Notes: generated from the letters alone by a model not told the origin. A stretch of 34,309 nt of DNA from a virus (IMGVR_UViG_2872152978_000008), one strand, 5' to 3'; counted from the first letter of the stretch, positions 6,850 through 29,400 are shown. Numbers and translations: made by a program.

Positions 6850-8387
6850 ATGAGCAGCTCACTTCCTGACGATATCAATGCACTGAAACGTCTCCTTGCC
6901 GAACAGGAGGCGCTGAACCGTGCCCTGCTGGAAAAGCTGAACGAGCGTGAACGCGAAATAGACCATCTGCAGGCACAGCTGGATAAGCTGCGCCGGATGA
7001 ACTTCGGCAGCCGCTCCGAAAAAGTCTCCGTCGTATCGCACAGATGGAAGCTGACCTGAAGGCACTTCAGAAAGAAAGTGATACCCTTACCGGTCGGGTT
7101 GACGACCCGGCCGTGCAGCGCCCGCTGCGTCAAACCCGCACCCGCAAACCGTTCCCCGAATCACTCCCCCGCGATGAAAAACGGCTGCTGCCGGCAGCGT
7201 CATGCTGCCCGGAATGTGGAGGCTCACTGAGCTATCCGGGTGAGGATGCCGCCGAACAGCTGGAGTTGATGCGCAGCGTCTTCCGGGTTATCCGGACTGT
7301 ACGTGAAAAGCATGCCTGTACTCAGTGCGATGCCATCGTGCAGGCCCCCGCGCCTTCACGGCCCATCGAGCGGGGTATCGCAGGACCGGGGCTGCTGGCC
7401 CGCGTGCTGATCTCAAAGTATGCAGAGCACACCCCGCTGTACCGCCAGTCTGAAATGTACGGCCGCCAGGGCGTGGAGCTGAGTCGTTCACTGCTGTCGG
7501 GCTGGGTGGATGCATGCTGCCGGCTACTGTCACCGCTGGAAGAAGCGCTTCAGGATTATGTGCTGACTGACGGTAAGCTCCATGCTGATGACACGCCTGT
7601 CCCGGTGCTGTTGCCAGGCAATAAGAAAACGAAGACCGGGCGGTTATGGACCTACGTTCGTGACGACCGTAACGCCGGGTCAACGCTGGCGCCGGCGGTG
7701 TGGTTCGCTTACAGCCCGGACAGAAAAGGCATCCATCTGCAGACCCATCTTGCGGGGTTCAGTGGTGTACTGCAGGCGGATGCATACGCCGGGTTCAACG
7801 AGCTGTACCGGGATGGCCGGATAACGGAAGCCGCCTGTTGGGCTCACGCCCGCCGTAAAATCCACGATGTGCACGTTCGCACCCCGTCAGCCCTGACGGA
7901 GGAAGCGCTGAAACGGATCGGCGAACTGTACGCCATCGAGGCAGAGATAAGGGGAATGACGGCGGAGCAGCGCCTTGCCGAACGTCAGTTGAAAACGAAA
8001 CCGCTGCTGAAATCCCTGGAAAGCTGGCTGCGTGAAAAGATGAAAACCCTGTCGCGACACTCAGAACTGGCGAAAGCGTTCGCATACGCCCTGAACCAGT
8101 GGCCGGCGCTGACGTACTATGCAGATGATGGCTGGGCTGAGGCGGACAATAATATCGCTGAAAATGCGTTGCGGATGGTCAGTCTGGGCCGCAAAAACTA
8201 CCTGTTCTTCGGTTCGGATCATGGAGGAGAGCGGGGAGCGCTGCTGTACAGCCTGATCGGGACGTGCAAACTGAACGGAGTGGAGCCAGAAAGCTACCTC
8301 CGCTATGTACTTGACGTCATAGCCGACTGGCCGATAAACCGGGTCGGCGAACTGCTCCCCTGGCGCGTAGCACTGCCGACTGAATAA
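6850..8387 (+). pseudogene. IS66-family transposase TnpC carrying a frameshift near 7027-7035
   Basis: ORF 6850-7059 (MSSSLPDDINALKRLLAEQE...) and ORF 7044-8387 overlap in different frames. Adding one base in GTCTCCGTCGT restores a continuous reading ...[18 protein letters not shown].... Confidence 0.75.
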
Positions 8388-8424
8388 CACATCCCCGTCA
8401 ATACGGTTCTTGCTGCACGCTTAC

Positions 8425-9322
8425 CATTGACGGGCGTGGTCTGGCTGGCGAGATCAGCAAGGAAACGGGTAAATCCCTGCGTGATAACGCTGAATACGTT
8501 AATCCCTGGGCGTCTCTGCATCGTGTTCAGCAATTCCGCTTCTTTGGTATTCCAGGGCGTCAGGCTTACCGTGAACTGCGGTTGTTGGCTGGTCAGGCGG
8601 CAAGGCAGCAGGGTGACAAAAAAGCAGGTGCGCCGGTACTGGATAACCCGCGCCTTGATGCCATCCTGGCTGCTGCTGATGCTGGCTGTTTTGCCACCTA
8701 CATTATGAGGCAGGGCGGCGTGCTGGTTCCTCGCAAATATCACTTGATCAGAACCGCTTATGAAATCAATGAAGAGCCGACCGCCTATGGCGATCACGGT
8801 ATTCGTATTTATGGCATCTGGTCACCCATTGCAGAAGGCAAGATCTGCACTCATGCAGTGAAGTGGAAAATGGTTCGTAAAGCCGTTGACGTTCAGGAGG
8901 CGGCAGCCGACCAGGGCGCTTGCGCCCCTTGGACTCGTGGCAATAACTGTCCCCTTGCTGAAAATTTGAACCAACAGGAGAAAGATAAATCAGCTGATGG
9001 GAACCCCAGAACGGACATTACCAGCATGGATGACAAGGAGTTGCACGATTACCTGCACAGTATGAGCAAAAAAGAGCGCCGGGAACTGGCAGCAAGGTTA
9101 CGCCTGGTGAAACCGAAACGGCGTAAAGACTACAAACAGCGAATTACAGACCATCAGCGACTGCAGCTCGTGTATGAGCTGAAGTCCAGAGGATTTGATG
9201 GCAGCGAGAAAGAGGTCGATTTACTCCTTCGCGGAGGCAGTATTCCGTCAGGAGCAGGCCTGCGTATCTTCTATCGGAACCAGCGTTTGCAGGAAGATGA
9301 TCAGTGGCGGAACCTGTATTAA
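8425..9322 (+). pseudogene. A: Replication gene A, C-terminal part
   Basis: Same reading frame as 4460-5984 once the 2448-bp insertion (IS + duplication, a multiple of 3) is removed. Frame reads [31 protein letters not shown]... continuing into ORF 8582-9322. Confidence 0.8.
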
Positions 9323-9414
9323 TTACGCGGGTTAACAATTCGTGCTCTTAATAATACCAGGCATATCAGGCTGATGAACGTAAAAAAACGTTTTACATCA
9401 GTAAGATTATTATA

Positions 9415-9434
9415 TACTGTAAATATAAACAGTG
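9415..9434 (+). promoter_or_regulatory. LexA (SOS) box TACTGTAAATATAAACAGTG
   Basis: CTGT-N8-ACAG with AT-rich spacer, 42 bp upstream of the ATG at 9476, within AT-rich promoter-like sequence. Confidence 0.7.
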
Positions 9435-9475
9435 GTTATGCATGCAGTATTGCGTGTGGTGTCATAGGAGGAAAG

Positions 9476-9664
9476 ATGCAGGACTATTTTTTGGAGTCTT
9501 TGAAGCTCCAGCGCATTGATTTTTTTCTTAAGCTTGTAGCGGCTAGTGAGTGTAGTGATGAAGAGAAGGGGCTGGCTCTGCAGTGGGTTTCTGAATTGAC
9601 TGATGAACTCATGGCAAAAATCAGAACCCACGAATACAACCGCTCAATGGATGTCATCAGCTGA
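9476..9664 (+). CDS. Small SOS-regulated protein, hypothetical (possible Tum-like antirepressor)
   Basis: 62-aa ORF with AGGAGG SD 5 nt upstream and a LexA box in its promoter. The longer track ORF (from 9374) would place the LexA box inside the coding sequence. Confidence 0.5.
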   Translation: MQDYFLESLKLQRIDFFLKLVAASECSDEEKGLALQWVSELTDELMAKIRTHEYNRSMDVIS

Positions 9665-9674
9665 GGTGACTTTT

Positions 9675-9908
9675 ATGCGCATTGAAATAATGATCGATAA
9701 AGAGCAGAAGATTAGCCAGTCTACCCTGGACGCTCTTGAATCCGAGCTTTACCGCAATCTGCGCCCTCTGTATCCCAAAACGGTAATTCGTATCCGCAAA
9801 GGTAGCTCTAACGGTGTGGAACTTACCGGATTGCAACTGGACGAAGAAAGAAAACAAGTGATGAAAATTATGCAGAAGGTGTGGGAAGACGACAGCTGGC
9901 TGCATTAA
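9675..9908 (+). CDS. DinI-family protein
   Basis: MRIEIMIDKEQKISQSTLDALESELYRNLRPLYPK...VWEDDSWLH resembles E. coli DinI (MRIEVTIAK...WESADDWFVSE, recalled); GAGGTG SD upstream. Confidence 0.7.
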   Translation: MRIEIMIDKEQKISQSTLDALESELYRNLRPLYPKTVIRIRKGSSNGVELTGLQLDEERKQVMKIMQKVWEDDSWLH

Positions 9909-10043
9909 GAAACGTTGCTGGCGTCTGAACTAGCTTCTGGCGTCAGCAAGGTTGAACAACGAGCCCTTGCGAGGCGTTAGCTCTGTAGTGCATGTCTATG
10001 CCGCATGAGATCGCATGATCGTTTGAGGATCGTTTTTGCTAAG

Positions 10044-10068
10044 GCCCGCCAGAACTGGCGGGCTTTTG
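10044..10068 (+). terminator. Candidate rho-independent terminator after the SOS operon
   Basis: GC-rich hairpin GCCCGCCAG-AA-CTGGCGGGC followed by TTTTG. Confidence 0.55.
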
Positions 10069-10167
10069 CGTAGATCATGCAGGTGCATGAAAACCACTAC
10101 ATAAAGCGGGCAGGTAATGCTGCCAACTTACTGATTTAGTGTATGATGGTGATTTTAAGGTGCTTGC

Positions 10168-10443
10168 GTGGCTTCCATTTCCATCAGATGTCCTTCCTGC
10201 TCCGCTACTGAAGGCGTGGTGCGTAACGGCAAAAGCACTGCCGGACATCAGCGCTATCTCTGCTCTCATTGCCGTAAAACATGGCAACTACAGTTCACTT
10301 ACACCGCCTCTCAGCCCGGTACGCACCAGAAAATCATTGATATGGCCATGAATGGCGTCGGATGTCGCGCCAGTGCACGCATTATGGGCGTTGGCCTCAA
10401 CACGGTTTTACGTCACTTAAAAAACTCAGGCCGCAGTCGGTAA
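10168..10443 (+). CDS. insA: IS1 InsA
   Basis: [42 protein letters not shown]... is the canonical IS1 InsA. Confidence 0.9.
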
Positions 10444-10865
10444 CCTCGCGCATACAACCGGGCAGTGATGTGATTGTCTGCGCTGAAATGGACGAACAGT
10501 GGGGCTACGTCGGTGCTAAATCACGTCAGCGCTGGCTGTTTTACGCGTATGACAGGATACGGAGGACGGTTGTGGCGCACGTCTTCGGTGAACGCACTCT
10601 GACCACACTGGAGCGTCTTCTGAGCCTGCTGTCGGCCTTTGAGGTCGTGGTATGGATGACGGATGGCTGGCCGCTGTATGAATCACGCCTGAAGGGAAAG
10701 CTGCACGTTATCAGCAAGCGTTACACTCAGCGCATTGAGCGACATAATCTGAATCTGAGACAACATCTGGCAAGGCTGGGACGGAAGTCACTGTCGTTCT
10801 CAAAATCGGTGGAGCTGCATGACAAGGTCATCGGGCATTATCTGAACATAAAACACTATCAGTAA
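10362..10865 (+). CDS. insB: IS1 InsB (expressed as InsAB' by -1 frameshift)
   Basis: -1 frame relative to insA; canonical IS1 InsB sequence. Confidence 0.85.
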
Positions 10866-10889
10866 GTTGGAGTCATTACCAGCGGGCAG

Positions 10890-10910
10890 GCGTGGCGGGG
10901 ATACGATTGC
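10890..10910. other. cos-like motif GGCGTGGCGGGGATACGATTG
   Basis: First 13 nt identical to the 186 cohesive-end sequence as I recall it (GGCGTGGCGGGGAAAGCAT). It sits immediately right of the IS1 target duplication, where GC-rich phage DNA changes to the AT-rich cassette. From memory, not verified. Confidence 0.3.
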
Positions 10911-10976
10911 GCGCTAGGTATAAGTGTGTAAAATAATTCCAAAATAAATCATCACCAATGAAGTGAGAGGGTAATA

Positions 10977-12626
10977 ATGTTAGTCAAGAAAAATAAAAAT
11001 TATAGTTTATATTTTTTAATTACAAATAATCAACAGATATCTGATTCTGGTAATTATATAAAAATAGTCCCATCAAGAAGCGATTGGAATGATTTTGGAT
11101 ATTTGAGTAGAGTCGAAATATCTATTTTTAATAAAAAAGAGTGTAAGGATATAATTTCACTGAATGGTTATATTGGTTTTTTGAATTCAGAGGAGGAACG
11201 AAATGGAAAAGCAGAACTGATAAGGCGAGTGAAAAAAAAGGAAGAATCTAATTTAAAGGATGAGGGGTTTAATGATTATTTTGTCATGCTTCAGGATATG
11301 AATAATTATCGAAGACTAGTAAGATTTTTTGGGGTGAATGAATCCAAATATATATTAAATTTCATTAATGATGTTGTTTCTAAGAAAAGTGACGCTAGTG
11401 CAGAGAATTTGAGGAAAAAAGCAATCTCTTCTGATATCTTTAATAAATCTTTCATTAGAGAGTCTGAGTCGTATTTTACTTTCAAAAATGCAGGAACAGT
11501 TCTTTCCGGTATTCAATATGAGGAGTTGGGTAATTTATCACAGCACATCAAGATTAGCTATTCGAATAAAGTTAATGAAGAAGATGTATCTTATGTTTTT
11601 AATTTTGATCACGAGCATGATTTACCAAAAAGAATTTCCATAATTATAGGCGAGAATGGTGTAGGAAAAAGCCAAACGCTTAGAGAAATCGCATTGGCTG
11701 CGATTAAAGGAAAGGATAATTTGGTGGCTGTAGTTGATTCTAACGGTGTGAGCATTGAAGAACGAATTCAAATTAGTAGGCTCATTGCTTTTTCTCCAAC
11801 AAATGAAAGTAAGTGTTCATTTCCAACCGATAAAAGAATAAAATCATTGATATGGTACAAAAGATTGACTTTAAATCGTGAATCAAAATCCAAATTAAAC
11901 TTGAATGATTTAATAGTGCAACTAGCGAGGAGTAACGACGCTATCGGCTATAATCAAAGGTGGAATATATTTGTTGATGCACTGAGTGTTCTAAATAGTA
12001 ACAACGATTTAGTAATCAAATGTGGCGGTGAAAATTCACCATTTGTTAAATTAAATGAGCTTAATTCTCGAGGCGAAGAATCTAGACTATCATTATATTC
12101 TGAAATTATTCTCTCTGGCGAGCCTTTGAGGCTTATTGAAAATAAATGTTACCCTTTGAGTAGTGGGGAAATATCGTTTATTAAGTTTTGTGTACAAGTC
12201 TGTTTGTATATTGAGAATGGGACTCTTCTATTAATAGATGAGCCAGAAACACATCTCCATCCTTCATTTATTAATAAATTTATGGCATTGCTTGATAATT
12301 TATTAGAAAAGACAGGCTCTTCAGCTATCATAGCAACGCATTCGGTTTATCTTGTTCGGGAGGTTTTTAAGGAGCAAGTGACAATACTCAGAAGACGAGA
12401 TGATGGGGTAATTGTTAGCGAAAAACCGAGATTGAGTACTTTTGGGGCGAATATAGGAAATATCTCATATTTTGTTTTCGGTGAGAGTGAACCAACTCAA
12501 ATTTTAAATAAAGTAAAAAACAATATAATTGCAAAGAATATGTCTTGGGATGATGTTGAATCTAAATATAGCGAGGACTTATCACTTAATGTATTAACTG
12601 CGTTGAGAAATGAAATGGGCAATTGA
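10977..12626 (+). CDS. ABC/AAA15-type ATPase with ~220-aa N-terminal extension (PtuA-like defence ATPase candidate)
   Basis: Walker A GENGVGKSQ (~aa 226), ABC signature-like LSSGE, Walker B LLLIDEPETHLHP, H-loop ATHS. GAGAGGG SD before ATG. Very AT-rich relative to the flanking prophage. Confidence 0.75.
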   Translation: MLVKKNKNYSLYFLITNNQQISDSGNYIKIVPSRSDWNDFGYLSRVEISIFNKKECKDIISLNGYIGFLNSEEERNGKAELIRRVKKKEESNLKDEGFNDYFVMLQDMNNYRRLVRFFGVNESKYILNFINDVVSKKSDASAENLRKKAISSDIFNKSFIRESESYFTFKNAGTVLSGIQYEELGNLSQHIKISYSNKVNEEDVSYVFNFDHEHDLPKRISIIIGENGVGKSQTLREIALAAIKGKDNLVAVVDSNGVSIEERIQISRLIAFSPTNESKCSFPTDKRIKSLIWYKRLTLNRESKSKLNLNDLIVQLARSNDAIGYNQRWNIFVDALSVLNSNNDLVIKCGGENSPFVKLNELNSRGEESRLSLYSEIILSGEPLRLIENKCYPLSSGEISFIKFCVQVCLYIENGTLLLIDEPETHLHPSFINKFMALLDNLLEKTGSSAIIATHSVYLVREVFKEQVTILRRRDDGVIVSEKPRLSTFGANIGNISYFVFGESEPTQILNKVKNNIIAKNMSWDDVESKYSEDLSLNVLTALRNEMGN

Positions 12627-13491
12627 AATGAATAAATTAAAAAGACCTGTTTTTAAAGATTATTCTGCATTTAAAAAACTATCTGCAAATAAGAGATTAA
12701 AACATCATTCTGTTCTGAATGGACAGGATACATTTATACTTAATGCATATAGATCGTACATAAAGAATAAAGGGTATCTTAATGTCAATTCTTGTGGCGT
12801 ATTGAGTAACAATATTGCTGAAGCTTTGAGATATTATTATAACAATCCCGCAAAGTGTTTATCTATAATTGATGATATAAGAGCAGCTAATTCTAACTCT
12901 CTATGTCCAATGTGTGGTTCAATGCATAGCGGGACTTTGGATCATGTTTTACCCAAGGAAAACTATCCAGAATTTTCTTTATTCACTAAGAATTTGGTTC
13001 CTGCTTGCAAATGTAATACTTTCAAAAGTACTACTATAGCTAATTCTGCAGGCCATCGGATGCTGCATCCATATTTTGATAATATATTAAAACAAAGATT
13101 AATATGTGCTAATTTTTCTAAATTAGGGCGAACACCTACAATTGATGTAAAAATCATAATTGACCCAATGTCACCAGAATATAACAATGTTAAGTATCAT
13201 CTTGATAATGTTGTTATCAAGAATAATATTAAGGGGTATTTGTCTGAACAATGGGAGTCGTTTTACTTATATCCTGAGCTTGTTATTAGAGGACTGAATA
13301 AGAGTCTTTCTACTTATAGCGATGTATATGAGTTGTTGACTCGCGAGTTGTTGCTGTTGGATGAAAAACATAAAGGTAAAAATAATTGGAATTCGGTTTT
13401 TGTAGCTGGGTTAATTCGACCTGATGTGATTAGGTGGATACTCTGTGAATTACATTTAGGTAACAGAAGTCCAGACGGTCGTCTCATATGA
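12610..13491 (+). CDS. HNH endonuclease (PtuB-like defence nuclease candidate)
   Basis: CPMCGSMHSGTLDHVLPKENYPEFSLFTKNLVPACKCNTFK carries the CxxC...DH...N...CxCN HNH/zinc-finger signature. Start overlaps the ATPase stop by 17 nt (alternative ATG at 12628), suggesting translational coupling. Confidence 0.75.
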   Translation: MKWAIEMNKLKRPVFKDYSAFKKLSANKRLKHHSVLNGQDTFILNAYRSYIKNKGYLNVNSCGVLSNNIAEALRYYYNNPAKCLSIIDDIRAANSNSLCPMCGSMHSGTLDHVLPKENYPEFSLFTKNLVPACKCNTFKSTTIANSAGHRMLHPYFDNILKQRLICANFSKLGRTPTIDVKIIIDPMSPEYNNVKYHLDNVVIKNNIKGYLSEQWESFYLYPELVIRGLNKSLSTYSDVYELLTRELLLLDEKHKGKNNWNSVFVAGLIRPDVIRWILCELHLGNRSPDGRLI

Positions 13492-13501
13492 TTTTTTGCA
13501 T

Positions 13502-13527
13502 CTTCAGCGTGTATCTGCACGCTGAAG
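13502..13527. repeat. Perfect 10-bp inverted repeat (CTTCAGCGTG-TATCTG-CACGCTGAAG) downstream of the HNH gene
   Basis: Stem-loop 11 nt after the HNH stop; no canonical U-tract on either strand, so terminator function is uncertain. Confidence 0.5.
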
Positions 13528-13647
13528 AAATTCATAAAAACTGCTGCCTATTAATAAATTTTTTTAGCTGAGTTAAAGAACCTCATTTAGTGATTACGTT
13601 AAGTAGCTAGTTTATAACTATCAAATTTAACAATGTTCTCACTTACC

Positions 13648-14628
13648 AATTTATTTCCATCATTCTTTTTTGTAACGGTATTAACTCGTTACGTACAAAC
13701 ACCAGGCTCGCCTTCTCCACATCCCCAAACCCCCGACATTATTAGGCATAATCCCCATCATTTGCGGTGGCACACGATGCGCCGCCATCATGTCATCCCG
13801 GCTCACGTTCTTGATGTTCAGAAACTCATCCTTCGCCGCGACTTCTGACAACGGGATGATCTGAAGCCCGTCCTTTTTGCCGTTAGGCGAGTACATAAAC
13901 AGATTGCGGAAGTTACCTGGTCCTTTGGCGCTTTTCATCGCATTGCGGAGGTTGTTCACATCCTCCTGGTTTTGCGCGGCATCGGTCATGTACATGATGA
14001 AGCCTGCATGACTGCCGTTAATGTAATACTATCGGCGGAACAGCGTGGCGGACTCGTTGAGCAGGGCTGACGGAATGGCAGAAAGGTAACCTGGCAGGCC
14101 GTAGATCTCTTGGTTGATGTCCGGTTCCATCAGATGAAAGATGCTTCCTTTCGTGAACTGATACGGCTGCGTGGTCATGCCGTATTGCACAAACCAGTAG
14201 GTATCCAGGTCTAATCCGCGTCGGGTGTATTTTGCCAGAGCAGGCTCAAGAGCGATGACCTCTCCGAACCGGTTTGTGCGTTTCTCCAGGTAAGCGTTAC
14301 CAAATACCAGATAATCCTGCACAAAACGTGAAAAAGCCTGCTGGCTGAGCAGCGGGTGAGGGATGTAGGTACTGATCAGAATGTTGCATTTCACCGCAAT
14401 TGGTGAACTGTGATGCACGGCGGCGCGGAAGGTGCGCGCCAGTCCGTCAAAACTCACTGGCGGCTCATACCAGCGATCTGTCTGTACGCATTCCACATAG
14501 TCCAGTAGTTCACGGCGGTCCAGAACCGGAACGGGATCGCCGAAGCTGAATGCTTCGGCTGAAGTCTGGTTTTTATGCTGGGTCTGTTTCGTCGCCGCAG
14601 CGCGGTTCTTCTTACTCTTTCCCATCAA
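13648..14628 (-). pseudogene. Q: Portal protein gpQ with in-frame TAG (14029-14031) and a probable 1-bp deletion near 13727-13729
   Basis: ORFs 14029-14628 and 13681-13995 share a frame: ...ATLFRR*YYINGSHAGFIMYMTD.... Downstream the frame decays to GGLGMWRRRAWCLYVTS*, while adding one T restores a protein-like GGFGDVEKASLVFVRNELIPLQ... continuation to ~13648. Confidence 0.8.
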
Positions 14629-17367: not shown

Positions 17368-17383
17368 TGGAGCACAAAACCTG

Positions 17384-19191: not shown

Positions 19192-19638
19192 ATGAAGTTT
19201 GTTGCGCCAGAACAGGCACCGGAACAGGCGGAAATCATTAGAAATACGCCGTTCTGGCCTGATGTGGACCTGTCGGAGTTTCGCAGTGTCATGCGCACTG
19301 ACGGCACGGTGACGCAGCCGCGTTTAAAGTAGGTTGCACTGTCGGCAATTTCGGAGGTTAACGCAGAGCTGTATGAGTTTCGCAGACGCCAGCAGATGCT
19401 GGGGTATGCGTCGGAACAGCTGGACGGGAAAAGTGAGCGCATTCAGCACTATTTCAACGCGGTTTACTGCTGGGCTCGCGCCATGCTCAACGAACGTTTC
19501 CAGGACTATGACGCCACGGCATCCGGTGCGAAGCGGGGCGAAGAACTGGCGGAAGCAAGCGGTGATTTGTGGCGTGACGCCCGCTGGGCCATCAGCCGGG
19601 TGCAGGACGCGCCGCACTGCACAGTGGAGCTTATCTGA
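19192..19638 (+). pseudogene. L: Head completion protein gpL interrupted by in-frame TAG at 19330-19332
   Basis: AGGAG SD then ATG at 19192. MKFVAPEQ...TQPRLK*VALSAISEVNAELYEFRRRQQMLGYASEQ...DLWRDARWAISRVQDAPHCTVELI is continuous in one frame apart from the TAG. Confidence 0.75.
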
Positions 19639-19841: not shown

Positions 19842-19844
19842 ATT

Positions 19845-20060
19845 ATGACGCTTGAGCGAATCAGCGCCTTTATCACGTATTGCATCGCCGTCGTGCTGGC
19901 CTGGCTGGGCGATTTGTCCATCAAGGATGCCTCAACGCTGGGCGGCCTGATGATTGGTGTGCTGATGCTGGCTATCAACTGGTACTACAAACACAAAGCC
20001 TACCAGCTTCTGCGCGACGGGCAGATCTCGCGGGAGGACTATGAATCCATCAATCGTTAA
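19845..20060 (+). CDS. Holin (possible pinholin)
   Basis: 71 aa with two hydrophobic segments and a charged C-terminus, immediately upstream of the lysozyme gene. Confidence 0.6.
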   Translation: MTLERISAFITYCIAVVLAWLGDLSIKDASTLGGLMIGVLMLAINWYYKHKAYQLLRDGQISREDYESINR

Positions 20061-20553: not shown

Positions 20554-20554
20554 A

Positions 20555-20932
20555 ATGAAAAAGAAATTAATCAGCGGGCTGTTTCTGATGTTATGGATGG
20601 CGCTGTTAATCGCAGCAATAGTGTATCCGCAGGGGATTTTTCCGGTACTGGCAGCGTCCGGCGTTTGGGTAGCCTGTTTACTGACATGGGCGGTAATTCC
20701 GGTAGCACTGGCTTCGTTAATTAAGAATGGCCCGCTCTGGCAGGAGTTGAGGGCATCTTTACTGAAGACAATTACCCGAAAAGAAAACGTATTTATCAGC
20801 TGGGTGATACGATTGCTGATTGTCGTCAGTCTCGCCTGGACGGGGTGGGCCATTACCCTGGTCTTTTATCTGCTGACCGTTATTGCCTTCTGGATCACCC
20901 GTAATCAGATGGCGCAACAGGTAGCCGCATGA
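20555..20932 (+). CDS. LysA-like lysis-associated membrane protein
   Basis: Strongly hydrophobic multi-TM protein starting MKKKLISGLF with GGGAG SD; in the lysA position of P2. Confidence 0.5.
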   Translation: MKKKLISGLFLMLWMALLIAAIVYPQGIFPVLAASGVWVACLLTWAVIPVALASLIKNGPLWQELRASLLKTITRKENVFISWVIRLLIVVSLAWTGWAITLVFYLLTVIAFWITRNQMAQQVAA

Positions 20933-21357
20933 ACCGGTTGCTGCTGGTTGTGCTGGCGTTATTATTGGCGGCGCTGGGCTGGCAGACGTGGCGGCTGGCT
21001 GATGCCAGCCAGACCATCAGCACGCAGGCAGACGAGCTGCAGAGCAAAAGCCAGGCACTGGCAAAGAGCAACAGCCAGCTTATCAGCCTGTCCATTCTGA
21101 CTGAAACCAATAACCGGGAGCAGGCGCGGCTCTATGCCGAAGCAGAACAGACCAGTGTACTGCTGAGACAACGACAACGCCGGATTGAGGAACTGAAACG
21201 TGAGAACGAGGATTTACGTCGCTGGGCTGATACTCCTTTGCCTGCTGACATTATCCGGCTGCGGGAACGTCCGGCACTCACCGGAGGTGCAGCTTACCGT
21301 CAGTGGTTGTCCGCGAGTGACGCCGTGTCGGCTGGAGCAGGCAGCGCCGCGCACTAA
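20929..21357 (+). CDS. LysB / Rz-like inner-membrane spanin
   Basis: N-terminal TM segment then a coiled-coil-rich periplasmic domain (QADELQSKSQALAKSNSQ...). Confidence 0.6.
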   Translation: MNRLLLVVLALLLAALGWQTWRLADASQTISTQADELQSKSQALAKSNSQLISLSILTETNNREQARLYAEAEQTSVLLRQRQRRIEELKRENEDLRRWADTPLPADIIRLRERPALTGGAAYRQWLSASDAVSAGAGSAAH

Positions 21358-21490
21358 CGGTGATCTGAATGCGTTGCTGGATGAAACGGAGGCCGCCTGG
21401 GCGGTCTGTGCAGACAAAGTGGACATGATTATTGCGTGTCAGGAGCGAAACAGTGAACAAACCACAATCCCTGCGCCACGCCCTCAATAA
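21200..21490 (+). CDS. LysC / Rz1-like outer-membrane lipoprotein spanin, embedded out of frame in lysB
   Basis: Signal peptide with lipobox LTLSGC, Pro-rich mature part; begins inside lysB in an alternative frame. Confidence 0.6.
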   Translation: MRTRIYVAGLILLCLLTLSGCGNVRHSPEVQLTVSGCPRVTPCRLEQAAPRTNGDLNALLDETEAAWAVCADKVDMIIACQERNSEQTTIPAPRPQ

Positions 21491-21884
21491 AGCAGTGCCT
21501 TATGTCCGTAATAACCCGGACAAACTGCATCTGTTTGTGGATAACGGTTCGCTGGTTGCCTCCGGGGCTAGCTCCATGTCATGGGAGTACCGCTACACCC
21601 TGAACGTGGTGATTGAAGATTTCAGCGGCGACCAGAATCTGCTGATGGCCCCGGTTTTGCTGTGGCTGCGGGATAACCAGCCCGATGCGATCAATAACCC
21701 GGCGTTACGGGAAAAGCTATTCACCTTTGAGGTGGATATTCTGCGCAACGATGTCTGTGATATCAGCCTTAACCTGCAACTGACGGAGCGTGTGCTGGTC
21801 AGCACTGACGGCAGTGTGTCGAACGTTGAAGCGGTAGCGGAACCTGATGAACCTGAAGAAATGTGGACGGTGAAACGTGGCTGA
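21453..21884 (+). CDS. R: Tail completion protein gpR
   Basis: ~143 aa; likely GTG start at 21453 with AGGAGC SD; in the position of P2 R. Confidence 0.7.
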   Translation: MNKPQSLRHALNKAVPYVRNNPDKLHLFVDNGSLVASGASSMSWEYRYTLNVVIEDFSGDQNLLMAPVLLWLRDNQPDAINNPALREKLFTFEVDILRNDVCDISLNLQLTERVLVSTDGSVSNVEAVAEPDEPEEMWTVKRG

Positions 21885-22278
21885 ATTGCAGAAGGTGGAC
21901 GACTGGCTGAGTGCATTATTGGCGAATCTGGAGCCAGCCGCAAGAAGCCGCATGATGCGCCAGCTGGCGCAGGAACTGCGCCGGACACAGCAGCAGAACA
22001 TCAGGATGCAGCGCAATCCAGATGGCAGCAGTTATGAGCCGCGCAGGGTAACAGCACGCAGCAAAAAGGGGCGCATCAAACGTCAGATGTTTACAAAGCT
22101 GCGCACCACAAAATACCTGAAAACTGCAGCCAGCGCCGATTCTGCCAGCGTACAGTTTGAAGGTAGGGTGCAGCGCATTGCCCGTATTCACCATTACGGC
22201 TTGAGTGATCGCGTCAGTCGAAAAGGTATTTATACCATCTATGCGAAAAGGCAGTTATTAGGTTTTAATGTCCGGTAA
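21877..22278 (+). pseudogene. S: Tail completion protein gpS, 3'-truncated by IS1
   Basis: ORF runs into the IS1 left end and stops on a TAA inside the IS1 terminus (...RQLLGFNVR*). Confidence 0.7.
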
Positions 22279-22328
22279 TGCTGCCAACTTACTGATTTAG
22301 TGTATGATGGTGATTTTAAGGTGCTTGC

Positions 22329-22604
22329 GTGGCTTCCATTTCCATCAGATGTCCTTCCTGCTCCGCTACTGAAGGCGTGGTGCGTAACGGCAAAAGCACT
22401 GCCGGACATCAGCGCTATCTCTGCTCTCATTGCCGTAAAACATGGCAACTACAGTTCACTTACACCGCCTCTCAGCCCGGTACGCACCAGAAAATCATTG
22501 ATATGGCCATGAATGGCGTCGGATGTCGCGCCAGTGCACGCATTATGGGCGTTGGCCTCAACACGGTTTTACGTCACTTAAAAAACTCAGGCCGCAGTCG
22601 GTAA
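22329..22604 (+). CDS. insA: IS1 InsA (copy 2)
   Basis: Identical translation to copy 1 InsA. Confidence 0.9.
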
Positions 22605-23026
22605 CCTCGCGCATACAACCGGGCAGTGATGTGATTGTCTGCGCTGAAATGGACGAACAGTGGGGCTACGTCGGTGCTAAATCACGTCAGCGCTGGCTGT
22701 TTTACGCGTATGACAGGATACGGAGGACGGTTGTGGCGCACGTCTTCGGTGAACGCACTCTGGCCACACTGGAGCGTCTTCTGAGCCTGCTGTCGGCCTT
22801 TGAGGTCGTGGTATGGATGACGGATGGCTGGCCGCTGTATGAATCACGCCTGAAGGGAAAGCTGCACGTTATCAGCAAGCGTTACACTCAGCGCATTGAG
22901 CGACATAATCTGAATCTGAGACAACATCTGGCAAGGCTGGGACGGAAGTCACTGTCGTTCTCAAAATCGGTGGAGCTGCATGACAAGGTCATCGGGCATT
23001 ATCTGAACATAAAACACTATCAGTAA
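22523..23026 (+). CDS. insB: IS1 InsB (copy 2)
   Basis: As copy 1, with a T-to-A substitution (TLTTLERL to TLATLERL). Confidence 0.85.
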
Positions 23027-23036
23027 GTTGGCAGCA

Positions 23037-23519
23037 TTACCATGCAGCCCTCACAATATAGTTAAAAGCGACATTTCGTGGGCGTGTTTCATTCGCACCT
23101 GCAGGTTTAGTCGTTGCCGCAACAACACCACCCTCTGTAATAGCCGGGTTGGGAATTGGGTAATTATCGAAGTCAATGGCCGGAGACAGGGGCGTGATTT
23201 GTTTTAAAATCGTGGTGCCTGTAAAACTTTCCAGAGTCTGGTCGTTAGTTCGTGAAGTCCAGATTCCCCAATAGTGGTTATGACTGACAATCGCACCGTC
23301 CTGAAGCGTTAATAATCCCCTTCCGTTATCCACTCCACGTCCGTCATCCCAGCCACGAATAAACTCACCGCGTAAATCAGGCAATTTATTTGTCGGGTAA
23401 GCCTTTGCCAGTTCCGGGTATTCTTCAGCAGAAAAAGCCGCACCATTGCATTTCAGCCAGCCTGTCGGCGGAGTGGCTGAAGGCCACGGAACAGGCACAC
23501 CAACAGGTAATGCAGAGCC
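23037..23519 (-). pseudogene. Orphan tail-fibre variable C-terminal segment, clipped by IS1
   Basis: ...GWLKCNGAAFSAEEYPELAKAYP...NVAFNYIVRAAW is a typical tail-fibre C-terminal variable domain. It has no constant N-terminal part, lies inverted next to an invertase, and its 3' end runs into IS1. Confidence 0.6.
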
Positions 23520-23545
23520 TTCTCCCAAACCAACGTTTAAGAAAA
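23520..23545. other. Candidate 26-bp invertase crossover site (gix/cix/pix-like) TTCTCCCAAACCAACGTTTAAGAAAA
   Basis: Imperfect dyad resembling recalled Hin/Gin/Cin recombination sites, located at the 5' end of the inverted fibre segment and 55 bp upstream of the invertase gene. Confidence 0.45.
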
Positions 23546-23600
23546 TGCAGAGATAATGGCTAACTGGCATCATCCCCGGTTTTTATTCAGGGGATTGATC

Positions 23601-24167
23601 ATGCTTATTGGCTATGTACGCGTGTCAACAAATGACCAGAACACCGATTTGCAACGTAATGCACTGAACTGCGCGGGATGTGAGCGGATTTTTGAGGATA
23701 AAATCAGTGGCACTAAGCCCGACAGACCGGGGCTTAAAAAACTGCTCAGGACACTATCGGCAGGAGACACGCTGGTTGTCTGGAAGCTGGACAGACTGGG
23801 ACGCAGTATGCGGCATCTTGTTACGCTGATAGAAGAGTTGCGCCAGCGTGGTGTGAATTTCCGAAGCCTGACTGACAGTATTGATACCAGTACCCCAATG
23901 GGCCGTTTCTTTTTTCACGTCATGGGGGCTCTGGCTGAAATGGAACGTGAACTGATAGTTGAACGTACCAGAGCAGGGCTGGCTGCAGCTCGTGCCAAAG
24001 GCAGAGTAGGTGGACTCCGTCCTAAGTTGACCACCGAACAGTGGGCACAGATTGGACGTTTACTCGAGGCCGGAGAATCAAGACAGCGTATTGCACTGAT
24101 TTTTGATGTGGGCGTTTCTACCATTTATAGAAAATTTCCGGCGAATGAGAGCAATGAATCGCCCTGA
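23601..24167 (+). CDS. Serine DNA invertase (Hin/Gin/Pin/Cin family)
   Basis: MLIGYVRVSTNDQNTDLQRNAL...GDTLVVWKLDRLGRSMRHL... is the N-terminal resolvase catalytic domain with the active-site Ser in VRVSTNDQ; C-terminal HTH. Confidence 0.85.
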   Translation: MLIGYVRVSTNDQNTDLQRNALNCAGCERIFEDKISGTKPDRPGLKKLLRTLSAGDTLVVWKLDRLGRSMRHLVTLIEELRQRGVNFRSLTDSIDTSTPMGRFFFHVMGALAEMERELIVERTRAGLAAARAKGRVGGLRPKLTTEQWAQIGRLLEAGESRQRIALIFDVGVSTIYRKFPANESNESP

Positions 24168-24309
24168 GTCAGTATTATTTTGATTTTTCCTGTAAGCGGA
24201 CAAATACCGTCATTTTGTGTGAATAACGACACAACTGCGCTTAGCTGTTTGTCAGGCACAATCACTTCAACATAGGGCGAAGCCTAATCCAATCAGGAGG
24301 TTCGCCACT

Positions 24310-25481
24310 ATGGCTCAGGATTACCACCACGGGGTGCGCGTTGTTGAAGTCAACGAAGGCACCCGATCCATTACCACGGTGAGCACCGCCATCGTGGGTA
24401 TGGTCTGCACGGGCGATGATGCCGATGCAAAAATGTTTCCTCTTAATAAACCTGTGCTGATCACTGATGTGCTGACCGCCAGCGGTAAAGCGGGTGAGTC
24501 TGGCACGCTGGCCCGTTCGCTGGATGCCATCGCTGACCAGGCAAAACCCGTGACCGTTGTTGTGCGTGTGCCGCAGGGTGAAACGGAAGAAGAAACCACA
24601 ACCAATATCATTGGCGCAGTGACCGCCGAGGGTAAAAAAACAGGTATGAAAGCCCTGTTATCTGCCCAGTCACAGCTCGGCGTTAAACCGCGCATTCTCG
24701 GCGTGCCAGGTCACGACACGAAGGCGGTAGCTACTGAGTTGCTGAGCGTGGCGCAAAGCCTGCGTGGATTTGCTTACCTGTCAGCGTATGGTTGCAAGAC
24801 GGTGCAGGAAGCAATCACTTACCGTGAAAACTTCAGTCAGCGTGAAGGAATGCTGATCTGGCCCGACTTTACTGGCTGGGACACGGTGCTGAATGCCGAA
24901 GCAACGGCTTATGCCACCGCCCGTGCGCTCGGTCTGCGCGCTAAAATTGATGAGCAGACCGGATGGCACAAAAGCCTGTCCAACGTGGGCGTGAACGGTG
25001 TCACCGGAATTTCTGCTGATGTGTTCTGGGATCTGCAGAACCCGGCAACCGATGCAGGTCTGCTTAACCAGAACGATATCACCACGCTTATCCGCAAAGA
25101 CGGTTTCCGCTTCTGGGTTCCCGCTGTCTGAGCGATGATCCGCTCTTTGCCTTCGAAAACTACACCCGCACGGCGCAGGTGCTGATGGACACGATGGCAG
25201 AAGCGCACATGTGGGCGGTGGACAAACCGCTGAACCCGTCGCTGGCCCGCGACATTATCGAAGGTATCCGCGCCAAAATGCGTAGCCTGGTCAGTCAGGG
25301 CTATCTCATTGGTGGTGATTGCTGGCTGGACGAGTCGGTGAACGATAAAGACACGCTGAAAGCCGGGAAACTCACCATCGATTACGACTACACGCCAGTG
25401 CCGCCACTTGAAAACCTGATGCTGCGTCAGCGCATCACCGATCAGTACCTGGTGAATTTCTCCAGCCAGGTCAGCGCGTAA
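24310..25481 (+). pseudogene. FI: Tail sheath protein FI with a -1 frameshift in the G-run at 25115-25117
   Basis: ORF 24310-25131 ends ...[10 protein letters not shown]. Inserting one G restores ...[35 protein letters not shown]..., which joins ORF 25179-25481. Confidence 0.85.
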
Positions 25482-25490
25482 GGGGACAAC

Positions 25491-26006
25491 ATGGCTTTAC
25501 CACGCAAATTAAAACACCTGAACCTGTTTAACGACGGGAACAACTGGCAGGGGATCGTTGAGTCGCTGACGCTGCCGAAATTCACCCGCAAATATGAGAA
25601 GTATCGCGGCGGCGGTATGCCCGGAGCGGTGGATGTGGATCTGGGACTGGATGACAGTGCACTGGATACAGAATTTTCCATTGGTGGTACTGAACTGCTG
25701 CTGTTTAAGCAGATGGGCAAAGCCACGGTGGATGGCATCCAGCTGCGCTTTACCGGCTCTATTCAGCGTGATGATACCGGGGAAGTGCAGGCCGTGGAGC
25801 TTGTGGTGCGTGGACGTCACAAAGAAGTAGATTCCGGCGAGTGGAAGACGGGCGAAAGCAACACTACCAAAGTGACCAGTACCAACAGCTACGCGAAGCT
25901 GACCATCAATGGTGAGGTGCTCTATGAAGTGGACCTGATCAACATGGTGGAAATTGTGGACGGTGTGGACCTGATGGAAGCGCACCGCAACGCCCTCGGC
26001 CTCTGA
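25491..26006 (+). CDS. FII: Tail tube protein FII
   Basis: 171 aa directly after FI, as P2 FII. Confidence 0.85.
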   Translation: MALPRKLKHLNLFNDGNNWQGIVESLTLPKFTRKYEKYRGGGMPGAVDVDLGLDDSALDTEFSIGGTELLLFKQMGKATVDGIQLRFTGSIQRDDTGEVQAVELVVRGRHKEVDSGEWKTGESNTTKVTSTNSYAKLTINGEVLYEVDLINMVEIVDGVDLMEAHRNALGL

Positions 26007-26060
26007 TGTATCTGAACGGCGCGGAATGCCGCGCCAGAACCTAATTTACAGGACAACAAA

Positions 26061-26363
26061 ATGAGCGATAAGCAGACTGAAAAGACCATTCAACTGGATA
26101 CTCTCATCATGCGCGGTAAAACAGAAATTACCGAAATTGTGTTGCGTAAACCGCAGTCCGGTGCGCTGCGCGGCACACGCCTGCAGGCCATTATGGATAT
26201 GGATGTGAACGCGATGATGACCGTGATCCCCCGCATCTCCAGTCCGGCACTGACTGCACAGGAAATTGCAGAGATGGACCCGGCAGATCTCACTGCCATG
26301 TCGGTTGAGGTTGTCACTTTTTTGTTGAAGAAGTCGGTGCTTGCCGGTTTACCGACAGCCTGA
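26061..26363 (+). CDS. E: Tail assembly chaperone gpE
   Basis: 100-aa ORF between FII and T, with a T6G slip site near its 3' end. Confidence 0.75.
   Translation: MSDKQTEKTIQLDTLIMRGKTEITEIVLRKPQSGALRGTRLQAIMDMDVNAMMTVIPRISSPALTAQEIAEMDPADLTAMSVEVVTFLLKKSVLAGLPTA
26318..26324 (+). other. T TTT TTG slippery heptamer for programmed -1 frameshift producing E+E' (extension to ~26497)
   Basis: The -1 frame after the heptamer is open for 57 codons (VEEVGACRFTDSLTVDDLVADIATIFHWPPSV...SGASHE*) and ends overlapping the T start. Conserved chaperone frameshift of long-tailed phages. Confidence 0.6.
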
Positions 26364-26489
26364 CGGTTGACGATCTGGTGGCTGATATCGCCACCATCTT
26401 TCACTGGCCGCCATCCGTTACTGACGTTATGCCGCTGACCGAAGTGCTGGAATGGCGGGATAAAGCGATTCAGAGAAGCGGGGCCAGCC

Positions 26490-29400
26490 ATGAGTGACAA
26501 TAACCTGCGTCTGCAGGTGATTCTTAATGCGGTTGACAAACTCACCCGCCCATTTCGATCCGCGCAGGCCAGTTCAAGAGAACTGGCTGCTGCTGTCAAA
26601 AAATCCCGCGATGCAATAAAGCAGCTTGATCAGGCCGGGAGCAGTCTGGACAGCTTCCGAAAGCTGCAGGCAGAAAATCAGAAATTAGGCGACAGGCTGA
26701 ACTATGCCCGCCAGCGTGCAAATTTGCTCAGTCAGGAACTGGGAGCGATGGGGCCGCCTTCGCAACGTCAGGTTGTTGCTCTGGGCCGTCAACGGCTGGC
26801 TGTTCAGCGCCTGGAAGAACGCCAGAAAAAGCTGCAGCAGCAGACGGCGCTTGTGCGTGCAGAACTTTATCGTGCTGGTATTTCAGCTAATGATGGCGCC
26901 AGTGCGACGGCCCGCATTACCCGTGAAACGATGCGTTATAACAGGCAGCTTTCTGAGCAGGAAGCGAGGTTACGACGTGTCGGGGAGCAACAGCGAAAAA
27001 TGCACGCCGCCCGGGGGCTTACGCCAGGCGTCTTGAGGTAAGGGATCGTATTGCAGGTGCCGGAGCCACCACCACGGCTGCAGGGCTGGCAATGGGCGCA
27101 CCAGTGATGGCGGCAGTAAAAAGCTATACCAGCATGGAAGATGCCATGAAAGGTGTGGCAAAGCAGGTCAATGGTCTGCGTGACGATAATGGCAACCGCA
27201 CTGCGCGTTTTTACGAAATGCAGGGTGCCATCAAGGCTGCCAGCGAACAGTTGCCGATGGAAAACGGTGCTGTGGACTTCGCCGCACTGGTTGAAGGTGG
27301 TGCGCGCATGAACGTCGCAAACCCTGACGACAGCTGGGAAGACCAGAAACGTGACCTGCTGGCCTTCGCCAGCACGGCGGCAAAGGCGGCAACAGCCTTT
27401 GAACTGCCAGCGGATGAACTGTCAGAAAGTCTGGGGAAAATCGCCCAGCTCTACAAAATCCCTACCCGCAATATTGAGCAGCTCGGTGATGCGCTGAACT
27501 ATCTGGATGATAACGCCATGTCGAAAGGGGCGGACATCATTGATGTCATGCAACGCCTGGGCGGTGTGGCTGACCGTCTGGATTATCGTAAAGCGGCGGC
27601 GCTGGGTTCCACCTTCCTGACACTCGGCGCTGCGCCTGAGGTTGCAGCCAGTGCAGCAAACGCGATGGTGCGTGAATTGTCCATTGCCACCATGCAAAGC
27701 AAGAGTTTCTTTGAAGGGATGAATCTGCTGAAACTCAATCCAGAAGTGATTGAAAAGCAGATGACGAAGGATGCGATGGGAACTATCCAGCGGGTGCTGG
27801 AGAAGGTGAATGCGCTGCCACAGGATAAGCGCCTGTCTGCCATGACCATGTTGTTTGGTAAAGAGTTTGGCGATGACGCAGCGAAACTGGCAAACAACCT
27901 GCCGGAACTTCAGCGCCAGTTAAAACTGACTGCGGGCAATGATGCGCTCGGTTCCATGCAGAAAGAATCCGACATCAACAAGGATTCACTTTCTGCTCAG
28001 TGGTTGCTGGTCAAAACCGGAGCACAGAACACCTTCAGCAGCCTGGGGGAAACGCTGCGCCAGCCGCTGATGGATATTCTGTACACGGTGAAAAGCGTCA
28101 CGGGGGCGTTGCGTCGCTGGGTGGAAGCTAACCCGGAACTGACGGGCACTCTGATGAAAGTAGCCGCTGTGGTAGCTGCCGTTACCGTGGGCCTCGGCAC
28201 CTTAGCGGTGGCGCTGGCTGCAGTGCTGGGGCCGCTGGCAGTCATCCGTCTGGGATTCTCTGTGCTGGGTATCAAAACGTTACCTTCCGTTACGGCAGCA
28301 GTAACCCGAACCAGCAACGCGTTGTCCTGGCTGGCTGGCGCACCACTGGCACTGCTGCGACGCGGGCTTGCTTCATCGGGCAACGCTGCAGGTTTACTTA
28401 CTGCGCCGTTGTCGTCTTTGCGCCGCACGGCATCACTGACGGGAAATGTCCTGAAAACTGTAGCAGGTGCGCCGGTTGCACTTTTGCGGTCTGGATTATC
28501 CGGTTTACGTGCGGTTGCTGTGATGTTTATGAATCCACTGGCGGTACTACGCGGCGGACTGGCTGCCACAGGCACGGTGCTGCGTATGCTCGCATCCGGT
28601 CCACTGGCGATGCTGCGCGTTGCCCTGTATGCCGTCTCTGGTCTGTTAGGTGCTCTGCTCAGTCTGATAGGTCTTGTGGTTACTGCACTGGCGGGTGTGG
28701 CGCTGGTTGTCTGGAAATACTGGCAGCCCATCACCACATTTCTCGGTGGCGTGGTGGAAGGATTCAAAGCGGCGGCAGGTCCTGTCAGTGCCGCGTTCGA
28801 ACCGCTTAAGCCTGTGTTCCAGTGGATTGGCGACAAAGTACAGGCGCTGTGGGGCTGGTTTACTGATCTGCTGACGCCCGTTAAGTCGACCTCTGCCGAA
28901 CTGCAGAGTGCAGCGGCAATGGGGCGACGATTCGGGGAGGCTCTGGCGGAAGGGCTGAATATGGTCATGCATCCGCTGGACTCCCTGAAATCCGGCGTTT
29001 CCTGGTTGCTGGAGAAACTTGGCATTGTCAGTAAAGAGGCCGCAAAGGCGAAACTGCCGGAAAGCGTGACGCGTCAGCAACCTGCGACGGTGAATGCAGA
29101 CGGTAAAGTGATGATGCCATCGGGTGGTTTTCCGTCATGGGGATATGGCTTTGCGGGGATGTATGACAGCGGCGGGTATATCCCGCGCGGGCAGTTTGGC
29201 ATCGTCGGTGAAAACGGGCCGGAAATTGTTAACGGCCCGGCAAATGTGACCAGCCGGAGAAATACAGCTGCACTGGCTGCCGTTGTTGCCGGAATGATGG
29301 GTGTTGCTGCTACGCCAGCAGAGCTTCCACCGTTGCACCCTTTGGCACTTCCCGCGAAAGGCGGTGAAGCGATGGTGAGTCGTGCAGCCACTGTGCCGCC

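Follow-up and report, generated by a model that had tools for sequence, protein, structure and literature searches.

Most single-base deficits in a defective P2-like prophage of Shigella dysenteriae CP026840.1 are probably consensus errors

Four genes in a P2-like prophage remnant of Shigella dysenteriae serotype 4, one of them belonging to an inserted ISEc22 element, each lack a single base, and we put at roughly 0.85 the probability of the following reading: the deficits in the portal gene Q, the tail sheath gene FI and the tail tape-measure gene T are residual consensus errors of the record CP026840.1, that in the ISEc22 gene tnpC probably reflects a true mutation, and other lesions make the prophage truly defective. 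Errors are favoured in Q, FI and T because same-clone and sister assemblies carry longer runs at these sites and because the distribution of the short alleles matches a single, unpolished PacBio project and not phylogeny. On the real chromosome FI and T would thus most likely be intact open reading frames, and the run in Q would be C6. Taken as a whole, the observation is an ordinary one and mostly artefact.

The window, i.e. the whole stretch of 34,309 nucleotides that was analysed (IMGVR_UViG_2872152978_000008), corresponds to ~3,543,917-3,578,225 of CP026840.1, whose loci are 100% identical to it; this genome is listed as S. dysenteriae 4 in the supplementary text of Yassine et al. 2022. 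The window holds the prophage remnant, which adjoins ybjL, and the P2-like prophage (L001) of E. coli UPEC-245U (NZ_CP049845.1), 99.6-99.8% identical to the window, served as the intact reference. The alleles, their distribution over assemblies and the same-clone comparisons were all read directly from the sequences, and the features discussed below are collected in Table 1.

An earlier note on this DNA had described one missing base in each of the four genes. Alignment to near-identical intact references recovers all four deficits and places each of them in a G/C run, which corrects the location in Q, where the note had chosen AAA at 13727-13729: it is the directly adjoining C run that is one base short. 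The accompanying idea that one inserted base restores a long frame held for T (1025 aa), FI (390 aa) and tnpC (512 aa), each with the expected Pfam domains, and failed for Q, which would still contain a nonsense codon and a lost ATTT unit. Over the comparable parts, these four deficits are the only 1-bp indels between the window and its close relatives.

Table 1. Positions in the window of the genes, insertion sequences and lesions discussed in the text
Feature	Position	Strand	Remarks
ISEc22 (IS66 family)	5986..8424	+	in prophage replication gene A; alignment breaks 5985/8425, short target duplication
tnpA	6077-6457	+	ISEc22
tnpB	6454-6801	+	ISEc22
tnpC	6850-8387	+	ISEc22
tnpC frameshift	7028..7029	+	CC vs CCC in every other copy examined (for CDC 74-1112 see text); tnpC broken into ORFs of 69 and 447 aa
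IS1, first copy	10115..10880	+	upstream of the cargo genes; insA/insB-like ORF pattern; missing from sister-clade contigs
Portal gene Q, remnant	13599..14625	-	truly inactivated by nonsense codon and 4-bp loss
ATTT loss in Q	13649..13656	-	(ATTT)2 vs (ATTT)3 in other lineages; real loss of 4 bp close to the 3' end
C run in Q	13730..13734	-	C5 (coding strand G5), true sequence most likely C6; probable consensus error
Nonsense codon in Q	14029..14031	-	AAG -> TAG, real; SNP 14031 vs UPEC-245U prophage
IS1, second copy	22274..23041	+	at the edge of the baseplate/tail-fibre deletion; from alignment to UPEC-245U prophage
Inverted tail-fibre fragment	23042-23536		beside second IS1; UPEC-245U prophage 23714-24208, inverted
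Tail sheath gene FI	24310..25481	+	here split into 273-aa and 100-aa ORFs
G run in FI	25115..25117	+	GGG, true sequence most likely GGGG (G4 in UPEC-245U prophage); probable consensus error
Tape-measure gene T	26490..29566	+	here split into 183-aa and 824-aa ORFs
G run in T	27013..27017	+	G5, true sequence most likely G6 (G6 in UPEC-245U prophage); probable recurrent consensus error

Run lengths in Q, FI and T across assemblies

Three independently produced assemblies of the source clone, AERM01000113.1 (CDC 74-1112), Logan SRR7527638 and ABULTN010000004.1, differ from the window by 0 SNPs over 23012-34309 (11.3 kb) and share with it 26104T and 31135C, two bases missing from every other genome examined. 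All three carry an extra G at 25115 in FI and a further one at 27013 in T; beyond these two sites, AERM01000113.1 has one additional C at 23098 and ABULTN010000004.1 lacks 9 bp at 25955. Once repaired, FI is an ORF of 390 aa with sheath domains (Pfam), and this exact product was found on 289 Shigella contigs, the frameshifted 273-aa product on one contig, namely the source. The sole other GGG at this site is that of CP026842, a genome from a different clade that is itself rich in errors, which makes the shared allele a homoplasy. Less probably, a private real mutation in the sequenced culture accounts for a deficit, especially that in FI.

The repaired T encodes 1025 aa with a PhageMin_Tail domain, equal in length to T of the UPEC-245U prophage, and exactly this product occurs on 41 S. 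dysenteriae contigs. The G5 allele is carried by nine of the ten CP0267xx-CP0268xx genomes examined, across clades, and by none of five closely related assemblies from outside the project. Likewise, the frameshifted N-terminus of T was recovered from 13 megabase-sized and two small contigs, and all of the large ones listed (9/9) belong to the same accession series. Translation continues past 27013 in short-read contigs of another clade, where T has 773 aa (164, 28 and further contigs), while in project assemblies of that clade the T product is broken into 183 + 572 aa. Accepting the T frameshift as real on the strength of nine related complete genomes is refuted by the short-read read-through in both clades and by the single accession series of those genomes. 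What a real frameshift looks like is illustrated, in contrast, by the +1 G at 28488 in T of the other clade, which follows the SNP clade and is seen in short-read contigs. Outside the project, G5 is found in Logan ERR14938997 as well as four Logan contigs that diverge from the window by ~3%, and G6 tracts may therefore mutate for real in some lineages.

In Q, one C is missing at 13730 in comparison with the UPEC-245U prophage. The C5 allele is limited to CP026823, CP026825, CP026832 and CP026840 and the other 14 assemblies examined have C6, i.e. C5 occurs in 4/6 project genomes and 0/12 other assemblies. Run length is incongruent with the SNP tree and differs between genomes that are only 0-1 SNP apart over 11.35 kb; CP026823 (C5) and CP026807 (C6) have no SNP between them in that stretch, this indel being their sole difference. 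Further, C6 is present in sister-clade short-read contigs and, as deduced from its protein record and not read from DNA, in CDC 74-1112. The 117-aa Q product that results from C6 was found on 34 contigs including CDC 74-1112, and a 133-aa Q product on 293 contigs.

The closed Shigella genomes of Kim et al. 2018 are reportedly unpolished PacBio RS II consensus assemblies. Sister project genomes have 23 private one-base differences, all of which are deletions in G/C runs (~11 in CP026825 and ~9 in CP026842), with none in A/T runs and no insertions; the window contains 54 A/T runs of at least 6 bases. Of the three G/C runs whose true length is six bases, the window shows a contraction in two; at the third (29548), two other project genomes show one. 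The error does not affect all project genomes alike, given that CP026828 has G6 in T and that CP026807 and CP026834 have C6 in Q. Tens to hundreds of short-read contigs of the matching clades keep the intact forms of T and of the Q run. Yassine et al. 2022 excluded the PacBio genomes of this set, which had received no short-read polishing, for "numerous indels in the homopolymers". A PacBio-only project with such assemblies has most likely under-called G/C homopolymers by one base, and the cause, judged from the sequences, would lie in the sequencing chemistry together with the consensus step.

The tnpC deficit and competing explanations

The fourth deficit lies in an element that shares 99.5% identity with annotated copies of ISEc22 over ~2.44 kb, and related Shigella genomes carry the same ISEc22 insertion in gene A. 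The layout of tnpA-tnpB-tnpC, the DDE_Tnp_IS66 transposase and the short target duplication are those of the IS66 family. In comparison with intact ISEc22 copies, tnpC is one C short at 7028 (GTCTCCCGTCGT -> GTCTCCGTCGT), so that only the first 60 residues of the truncated TnpC are native; the repaired protein has 512 aa and the domains LZ_Tnp_IS66, zf-IS66, DDE_Tnp_IS66 and DDE_Tnp_IS66_C. The TnpA protein of the window is very widespread (6015 blocks), and its look-up is uninformative on other ISEc22 copies of the source genome.

A real mutation is the probable source of the CC in tnpC, since CDC 74-1112 has this CC too, together with the linked SNP 7556T, on contig AERM01000043.1 and in a different, truncated ISEc22 copy; this call comes from one independent assembly, which itself deviates at a homopolymer (the +C at 23098) and in which IS copies are possibly collapsed. 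The allele would then be carried by the ISEc22 lineage of the clone, giving rise to a copy without full-length transposase. A search of 1396 complete E. coli genomes (3129 ISEc22 places) and of PLSDB plasmids returned no CC.

An explanation by assembly artefacts at all four sites, where the CC of CDC 74-1112 would be a coincident error or stem from a different IS copy, is unlikely. It would agree with tnpC being once more a one-base C-run deletion in the same error-prone assembly, with private C-run deletions of sister project genomes inside the same tnpC (7157, 7170, 7349), with the CCC in the gene A ISEc22 copies of seven other Shigella genomes, with the 69-aa tnpC product occurring in no Logan or other short-read assembly, and with the AERM01 draft having a homopolymer error itself. 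However, the identical combination of CC and 7556T was obtained in an independent same-clone assembly with its own contigs and gene calls, the errors of the source assembly hit runs of 4-6 bases and none of the 515 three-base G/C runs in the checkable parts, and the repaired tnpC protein of the window haplotype was found nowhere in an exact-product look-up.

The opposite view, that all four deficits are real slippage and reflect neutral decay of a dead prophage and its IS, perhaps in a historical strain kept long in the laboratory, is very unlikely. It can draw on the prophage being non-functional otherwise, so that selection against such mutations would be lacking, on G/C tracts of 4-6 bases as natural slippage sites, on the G5 of T in a few non-project assemblies and on the genuine +1 G frameshift in T of another clade. 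On the other hand, it needs independent contractions of T in nine of ten project strains, spread over different clades whose short-read assemblies have G6, a Q contraction that arises or reverts among genomes 0-1 SNP apart, and an FI contraction that happened twice in unrelated genomes, and it has to face the longer runs of same-clone assemblies at 0 SNPs. Moreover, the project-wide bias towards G/C deletions and the published warning (Yassine et al. 2022) fit a technical cause.

It is highly improbable that true hypermutability affects the tracts of 4-6 G/C bases in Q, FI and T, with cultures as mixtures of run lengths from which sequencing samples differing majority alleles, although this would account for the G5 of T in a small number of assemblies that do not belong to the PacBio project. 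Almost no credence is due to the runs being functional, as programmed ribosomal frameshifts or as phase-variable (contingency) tracts that switch genes: one programmed -1 frameshift (E/E+E') is indeed known from tail operons of the P2 type, and phase variation by homopolymer tracts from other bacteria, but the intact homologues have a longer run and a single frame (343, 390, 1025 and 512 aa) and none of the sites combines a slippery heptamer with conservation of a second frame, which rules out programmed frameshifting, the true E/E' site is separate and intact, the prophage has no baseplate, fibre, portal or replication functions, and run length tracks the sequencing project.

Consensus errors in Q, FI and T next to a probable mutation in tnpC thus remain our preferred reading. 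The earlier note had weighed slippage decay against sequencing error and had named the extra base in independent data as the check between them. Approximated with public assemblies, this check returned the extra base for FI, T and Q and the CC of CDC 74-1112 for tnpC; same-clone alleles and project-tracking favour error in FI, T and the Q run, and decay is probable in tnpC only.

Real decay of the prophage

The prophage is defective through real lesions, namely ISEc22 in A, two IS1 copies, an IS3-family element, a deletion and the lesions in Q and L. Decay, an option that the note had left open, is a correct idea for the prophage in this wider sense, by way of lesions that the note did not contain (inserted IS elements, the nonsense codons of Q and L, the 4-bp loss and deletions). 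The IS3-family element replaces ~1.8 kb of early genes, the segment 19097-23713 of the UPEC-245U prophage is gone from the window, and L has an 18-bp deletion in addition to its nonsense codon. The intact Q of the UPEC-245U prophage encodes 343 aa and matches Pfam Phage_portal. The nonsense codon in Q of the window is present in every Shigella copy examined, and at least 1000 Shigella spp. contigs encode the 198-aa N-terminal fragment that ends at this codon. The ATTT loss is common to short-read contigs (L018-L022) and CDC 74-1112, the latter through product P0066 (34 contigs).

An inherited lesion should be congruent with the SNP phylogeny among relatives and visible across technologies. This pattern was found for the nonsense codon and the ATTT loss in Q, the nonsense codon in L and the +1 G at 28488 of the other clade, in part for the CC of tnpC (one independent same-clone assembly and a linked SNP), and for none of the Q run, FI and T.

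Consequences and comparison with known systems

The main value of these results is one of data hygiene, as closed references for Shigella serotypes are provided by CP026840.1 and the sister records. A literal reading of the homopolymer deletions in these genomes inflates the number of pseudogenes and points to a decay that never happened. The ~24.6 kb of the window that can be checked against same- or sister-clone assemblies contain three errors, and several hundred would be expected genome-wide if this rate held, as an extrapolation from those ~24.6 kb. Studies of gene loss, prophage integrity and allele typing in Shigella should therefore polish or mask these records. By contrast, real decay at this locus takes the form of inserted IS elements, nonsense codons and phylogeny-congruent indels.

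The deficits in Q, FI and T resemble the residual PacBio RS II homopolymer deletions in the genomes of Kim et al. 2018 in that they are one-base, restricted to G/C runs, either private or recurrent within one project, independent of phylogeny and missing in short-read same-clone assemblies. The tnpC site does not fit this class and seems real, and the attribution to the chemistry and consensus step is here one that we infer. The programmed -1 frameshift of P2 (E/E+E') is represented in the same operon by TTTTTTG at 26318-26324, just upstream of T and with E' in the -1 frame; unlike this site, the four deficits are not slippery heptamers and each breaks a single-frame protein. In its gene order, the remnant follows the UPEC-245U prophage from int, CI, A and the cargo genes through Q, P, O, N, M, L, X, holin, lysozyme, R and S, and downstream through FI, FII, E, E', T, U, D and ogr. 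It differs from that prophage in the missing V-W-J-I-H, the ISEc22 in A, the IS3-family element, the two IS1 copies, the nonsense codons in Q and L and the small deletions. Its assignment as P2-like is supported by the collinear blocks Q-P, O-N-M-L and FI-FII-E-E'-T-U-D-ogr, with which the Pfam families concur.

Four single-base deficits in a decayed P2-like prophage

The ORF map and composition identify the window as a P2-like prophage. Exact-protein look-ups led to loci on CP026840.1 that are 100% identical to it, at about 3,543,917-3,578,225 on a chromosome of 4,716,399 bp; Yassine et al. 2022 (PMC8795385) cite CP026840 as S. dysenteriae 4 in their supplement. Megablast against complete E. 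coli genomes yielded a fully annotated, intact prophage in UPEC-245U (L001), also beside ybjL, with 99.6-99.8% identity. The prophage is truly decayed, not via the four runs discussed below but because of nonsense codons, deletions and inserted IS elements. The IS3-family element displaced CII, fil and adjoining genes as far as part of the dam region, and positions 19097-23713 of L001 (V, W, J, I and most of H) are missing beside the second IS1. A 495-bp tail-fibre fragment adjoining this IS1 (22274-23536 region) has the opposite orientation to L001, and a resolvase/invertase gene (23556-24167) lies next to it, an arrangement suggestive of a once invertible fibre segment. The head-completion gene L, absent from an earlier note's list of lesions, carries a CAG to TAG nonsense codon (19330-19332) and an 18-bp in-frame deletion (junction 19411/19412), both of which are real since they are shared by related Shigella genomes and short-read contigs. 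The integrase is called in two pieces (207 aa, 430-1053; 103 aa, 1-312), a split that recurs in every related Shigella genome fetched.

Coordinates of the deficits and other features (window positions unless stated otherwise)
Feature	Coordinates	Remarks
Integrase, minus strand	1-1053	two pieces
IS3-family element (HTH_Tnp_1 and rve ORFs)	2575-3820	takes the place of ~1.8 kb of early genes compared with L001
ISEc22 (IS66 family), 2.44 kb, in replication gene A	5986-8424	absent from L001
tnpC deficit	7028-7029	CCC to CC
IS1, first copy	10115-10880	absent from L001
Two cargo genes	10977-13491	between DinI-like gene and Q
Q deficit	13730-13734	C6 to C5
Head-completion gene L	19193-19638	two lesions compared with intact prophage
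IS1, second copy	22274-23041	adjoins V-W-J-I-H baseplate/fibre deletion and inverted fibre fragment
FI deficit	25115-25117	GGGG to GGG
TTTTTTG, near end of E	26318-26324	
E' ORF, 39 aa	26378-26497	-1 frame
T deficit	27013-27017	G6 to G5
Second ISEc22 copy, truncated, near topB	9016-11996 of AERM01000043.1 (L024)	CDC 74-1112

The earlier note had ascribed frameshifts in tnpC, Q (portal), FI (tail sheath) and T (tape measure) to single missing bases, caused either by slipped-strand decay or by homopolymer sequencing error. Base-by-base comparison of the window with L001, and of tnpC with intact ISEc22 copies, confirmed all four deficits in the record, and no further one-base indels relative to close relatives were found in the regions compared. 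The missing base in Q, however, belongs to the C run and not to the adjoining AAA where it had been placed. Re-insertion of one base restores uninterrupted ORFs in tnpC (512 aa), FI (390 aa) and T (1025 aa), whose products contain the expected Pfam domains, but does not rescue Q because this gene also has a nonsense codon (AAG to TAG, 14029-14031) and is one ATTT unit short at 13649-13656 compared with L001.

Distribution of the Q, FI and T alleles

Judged from the sequences compared, the deficits in FI, T and the Q run are each very probably assembly artefacts (probability about 0.9), and there is no novel biology in the four sites. The exact repaired T protein occurs in 41 S. dysenteriae contigs, from which we drew three same-clone assemblies: AERM01000113.1 (CDC 74-1112), the Logan SRR7527638 assembly and ABULTN010000004.1. 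All three lack substitutions relative to window positions 23012-34309, share with it 26104T and 31135C (absent in every other genome examined), and contain the extra G in both FI and T; other differences are an additional C at 23098 in AERM01 and 9 bp missing at 25955 in ABULTN01. These public assemblies, the nearest available stand-in for the independent reads that the earlier note had named as the test, favour the artefact for FI and T.

The frameshifted FI product was found in a single contig among ~15 billion proteins, CP026840.1 itself, and repaired FI in 289 Shigella contigs. In our allele table of fetched loci, G3 in FI was limited to the window and CP026842, which belongs to a different clade. 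The frameshifted T N-terminus occurs in 13 megabase-sized and two small contigs; among the large ones listed, all nine have accessions CP0267xx-CP0268xx, the series of the PacBio project that includes CP026840.1. Yassine et al. 2022 (PMC8795385) set these closed Kim et al. genomes aside for their numerous homopolymer indels and state that they had not been polished with short reads. In the neighbouring SNP clade, assemblies of this project split T into 183 + 572 aa, whereas short-read contigs (164, 28 and further ones) encode a single 773-aa T that reads through 27013 and ends only at an additional G at 28488. The latter serves as a positive control: it behaves like a true frameshift in that its distribution matches the SNP clade and short-read data contain it too. 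G5 at the T site was present in nine of ten project genomes and in none of five closely related non-project assemblies in the allele table. Outside the project it was seen in Logan ERR14938997, itself with several other homopolymer indels, and in four Logan contigs with ~3% divergence from the window, from SRR19634182, SRR19634191, SRR19634193 and SRR22550175. Of these four, three have G5 at 29548 too. G6 tracts may thus have really contracted in other lineages.

For Q, the allele table contains C5 in 4/6 project genomes and 0/12 others. CP026823 (C5) and CP026807 (C6) lack any SNP over 11.35 kb and differ solely in this run. The short-read sister clade (L018-L022) is 2-5 SNPs away from the window and has (ATTT)2 and two derived SNPs in common with it, yet C6 in all its members. 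CDC 74-1112 encodes the C6 product as well, judging by its protein record (EFW52432.1).

Errors in unpolished RS II/Quiver consensus sequences are typically homopolymer deletions. In the regions compared, sister project assemblies have 23 private one-base differences (~11 in CP026825, ~9 in CP026842), all deletions in G/C runs and none in A/T runs. The window contains 54 A/T runs at least six bases long but just three true G/C 6-runs, two of which are contracted in the window. The third (29548-29553, T/U junction) is G5 in the project genomes CP026825 and CP026866 and in three divergent Logan contigs, so that T runs on into the U frame. A missing G at 33959 (ybjM) and the additional G at 28488 are common to CP026805, CP026823, CP026825 and CP026842; both track the SNP clade, and the one at 28488 is confirmed by short-read contigs.

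The CC allele of ISEc22 tnpC

The tnpC deficit is likely genuine, an allele carried by the clone's ISEc22 lineage. CCC is present in all seven other Shigella copies of the gene A insertion, and CC was found neither in 3129 ISEc22 places of 1396 E. coli genomes nor in PLSDB plasmids. The 69-aa frameshift product is, however, annotated in CDC 74-1112 (EFW51752.1). The truncated copy in this draft (L024) differs from the gene A copy, being fused to a 120-bp IS1 end and broken by another IS66-family element at the equivalent of window 7604, but matches it in both CC and the linked substitution 7556T. A real deletion is the simplest reading because two independent assemblies of one clone agree both on this loss from a run of three bases and on a linked SNP; CC has perhaps spread between ISEc22 copies by gene conversion. 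Our confidence is tempered because IS copies were possibly collapsed in the draft, which has one homopolymer discrepancy itself, and because the 69-aa product is reported by no other short-read assembly.

In three sister PacBio genomes (L014, L016, L017) tnpC of the same ISEc22 is split differently (126+372, 126+372 and 186+310 aa) by one private C-run deletion each, at 7157, 7170 and 7349, while CP026807, CP026834, CP045784 and PSSQ01 have the intact 512-aa gene. These splits illustrate assembly noise. CP026840.1 and its sister records need short-read polishing before pseudogenes are counted.

Cargo genes and the E/E' frameshift site

Both low-GC (31-32%) cargo genes are intact in the window, encoding a 549-aa AAA_15/AAA_21 ATPase, truncated in the sister clade by a 7-bp deletion at 11005, and a 293-aa partner annotated in L001 as HNH endonuclease. 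In PADLOC, the pair matches the candidate defence system PDC-M01A/B and, less strongly, PtuA (Septu). The TTTTTTG near the end of E is likewise intact and unrelated to the four lesions; it is the programmed frameshift site to be expected in tail chaperone genes of the P2 type.
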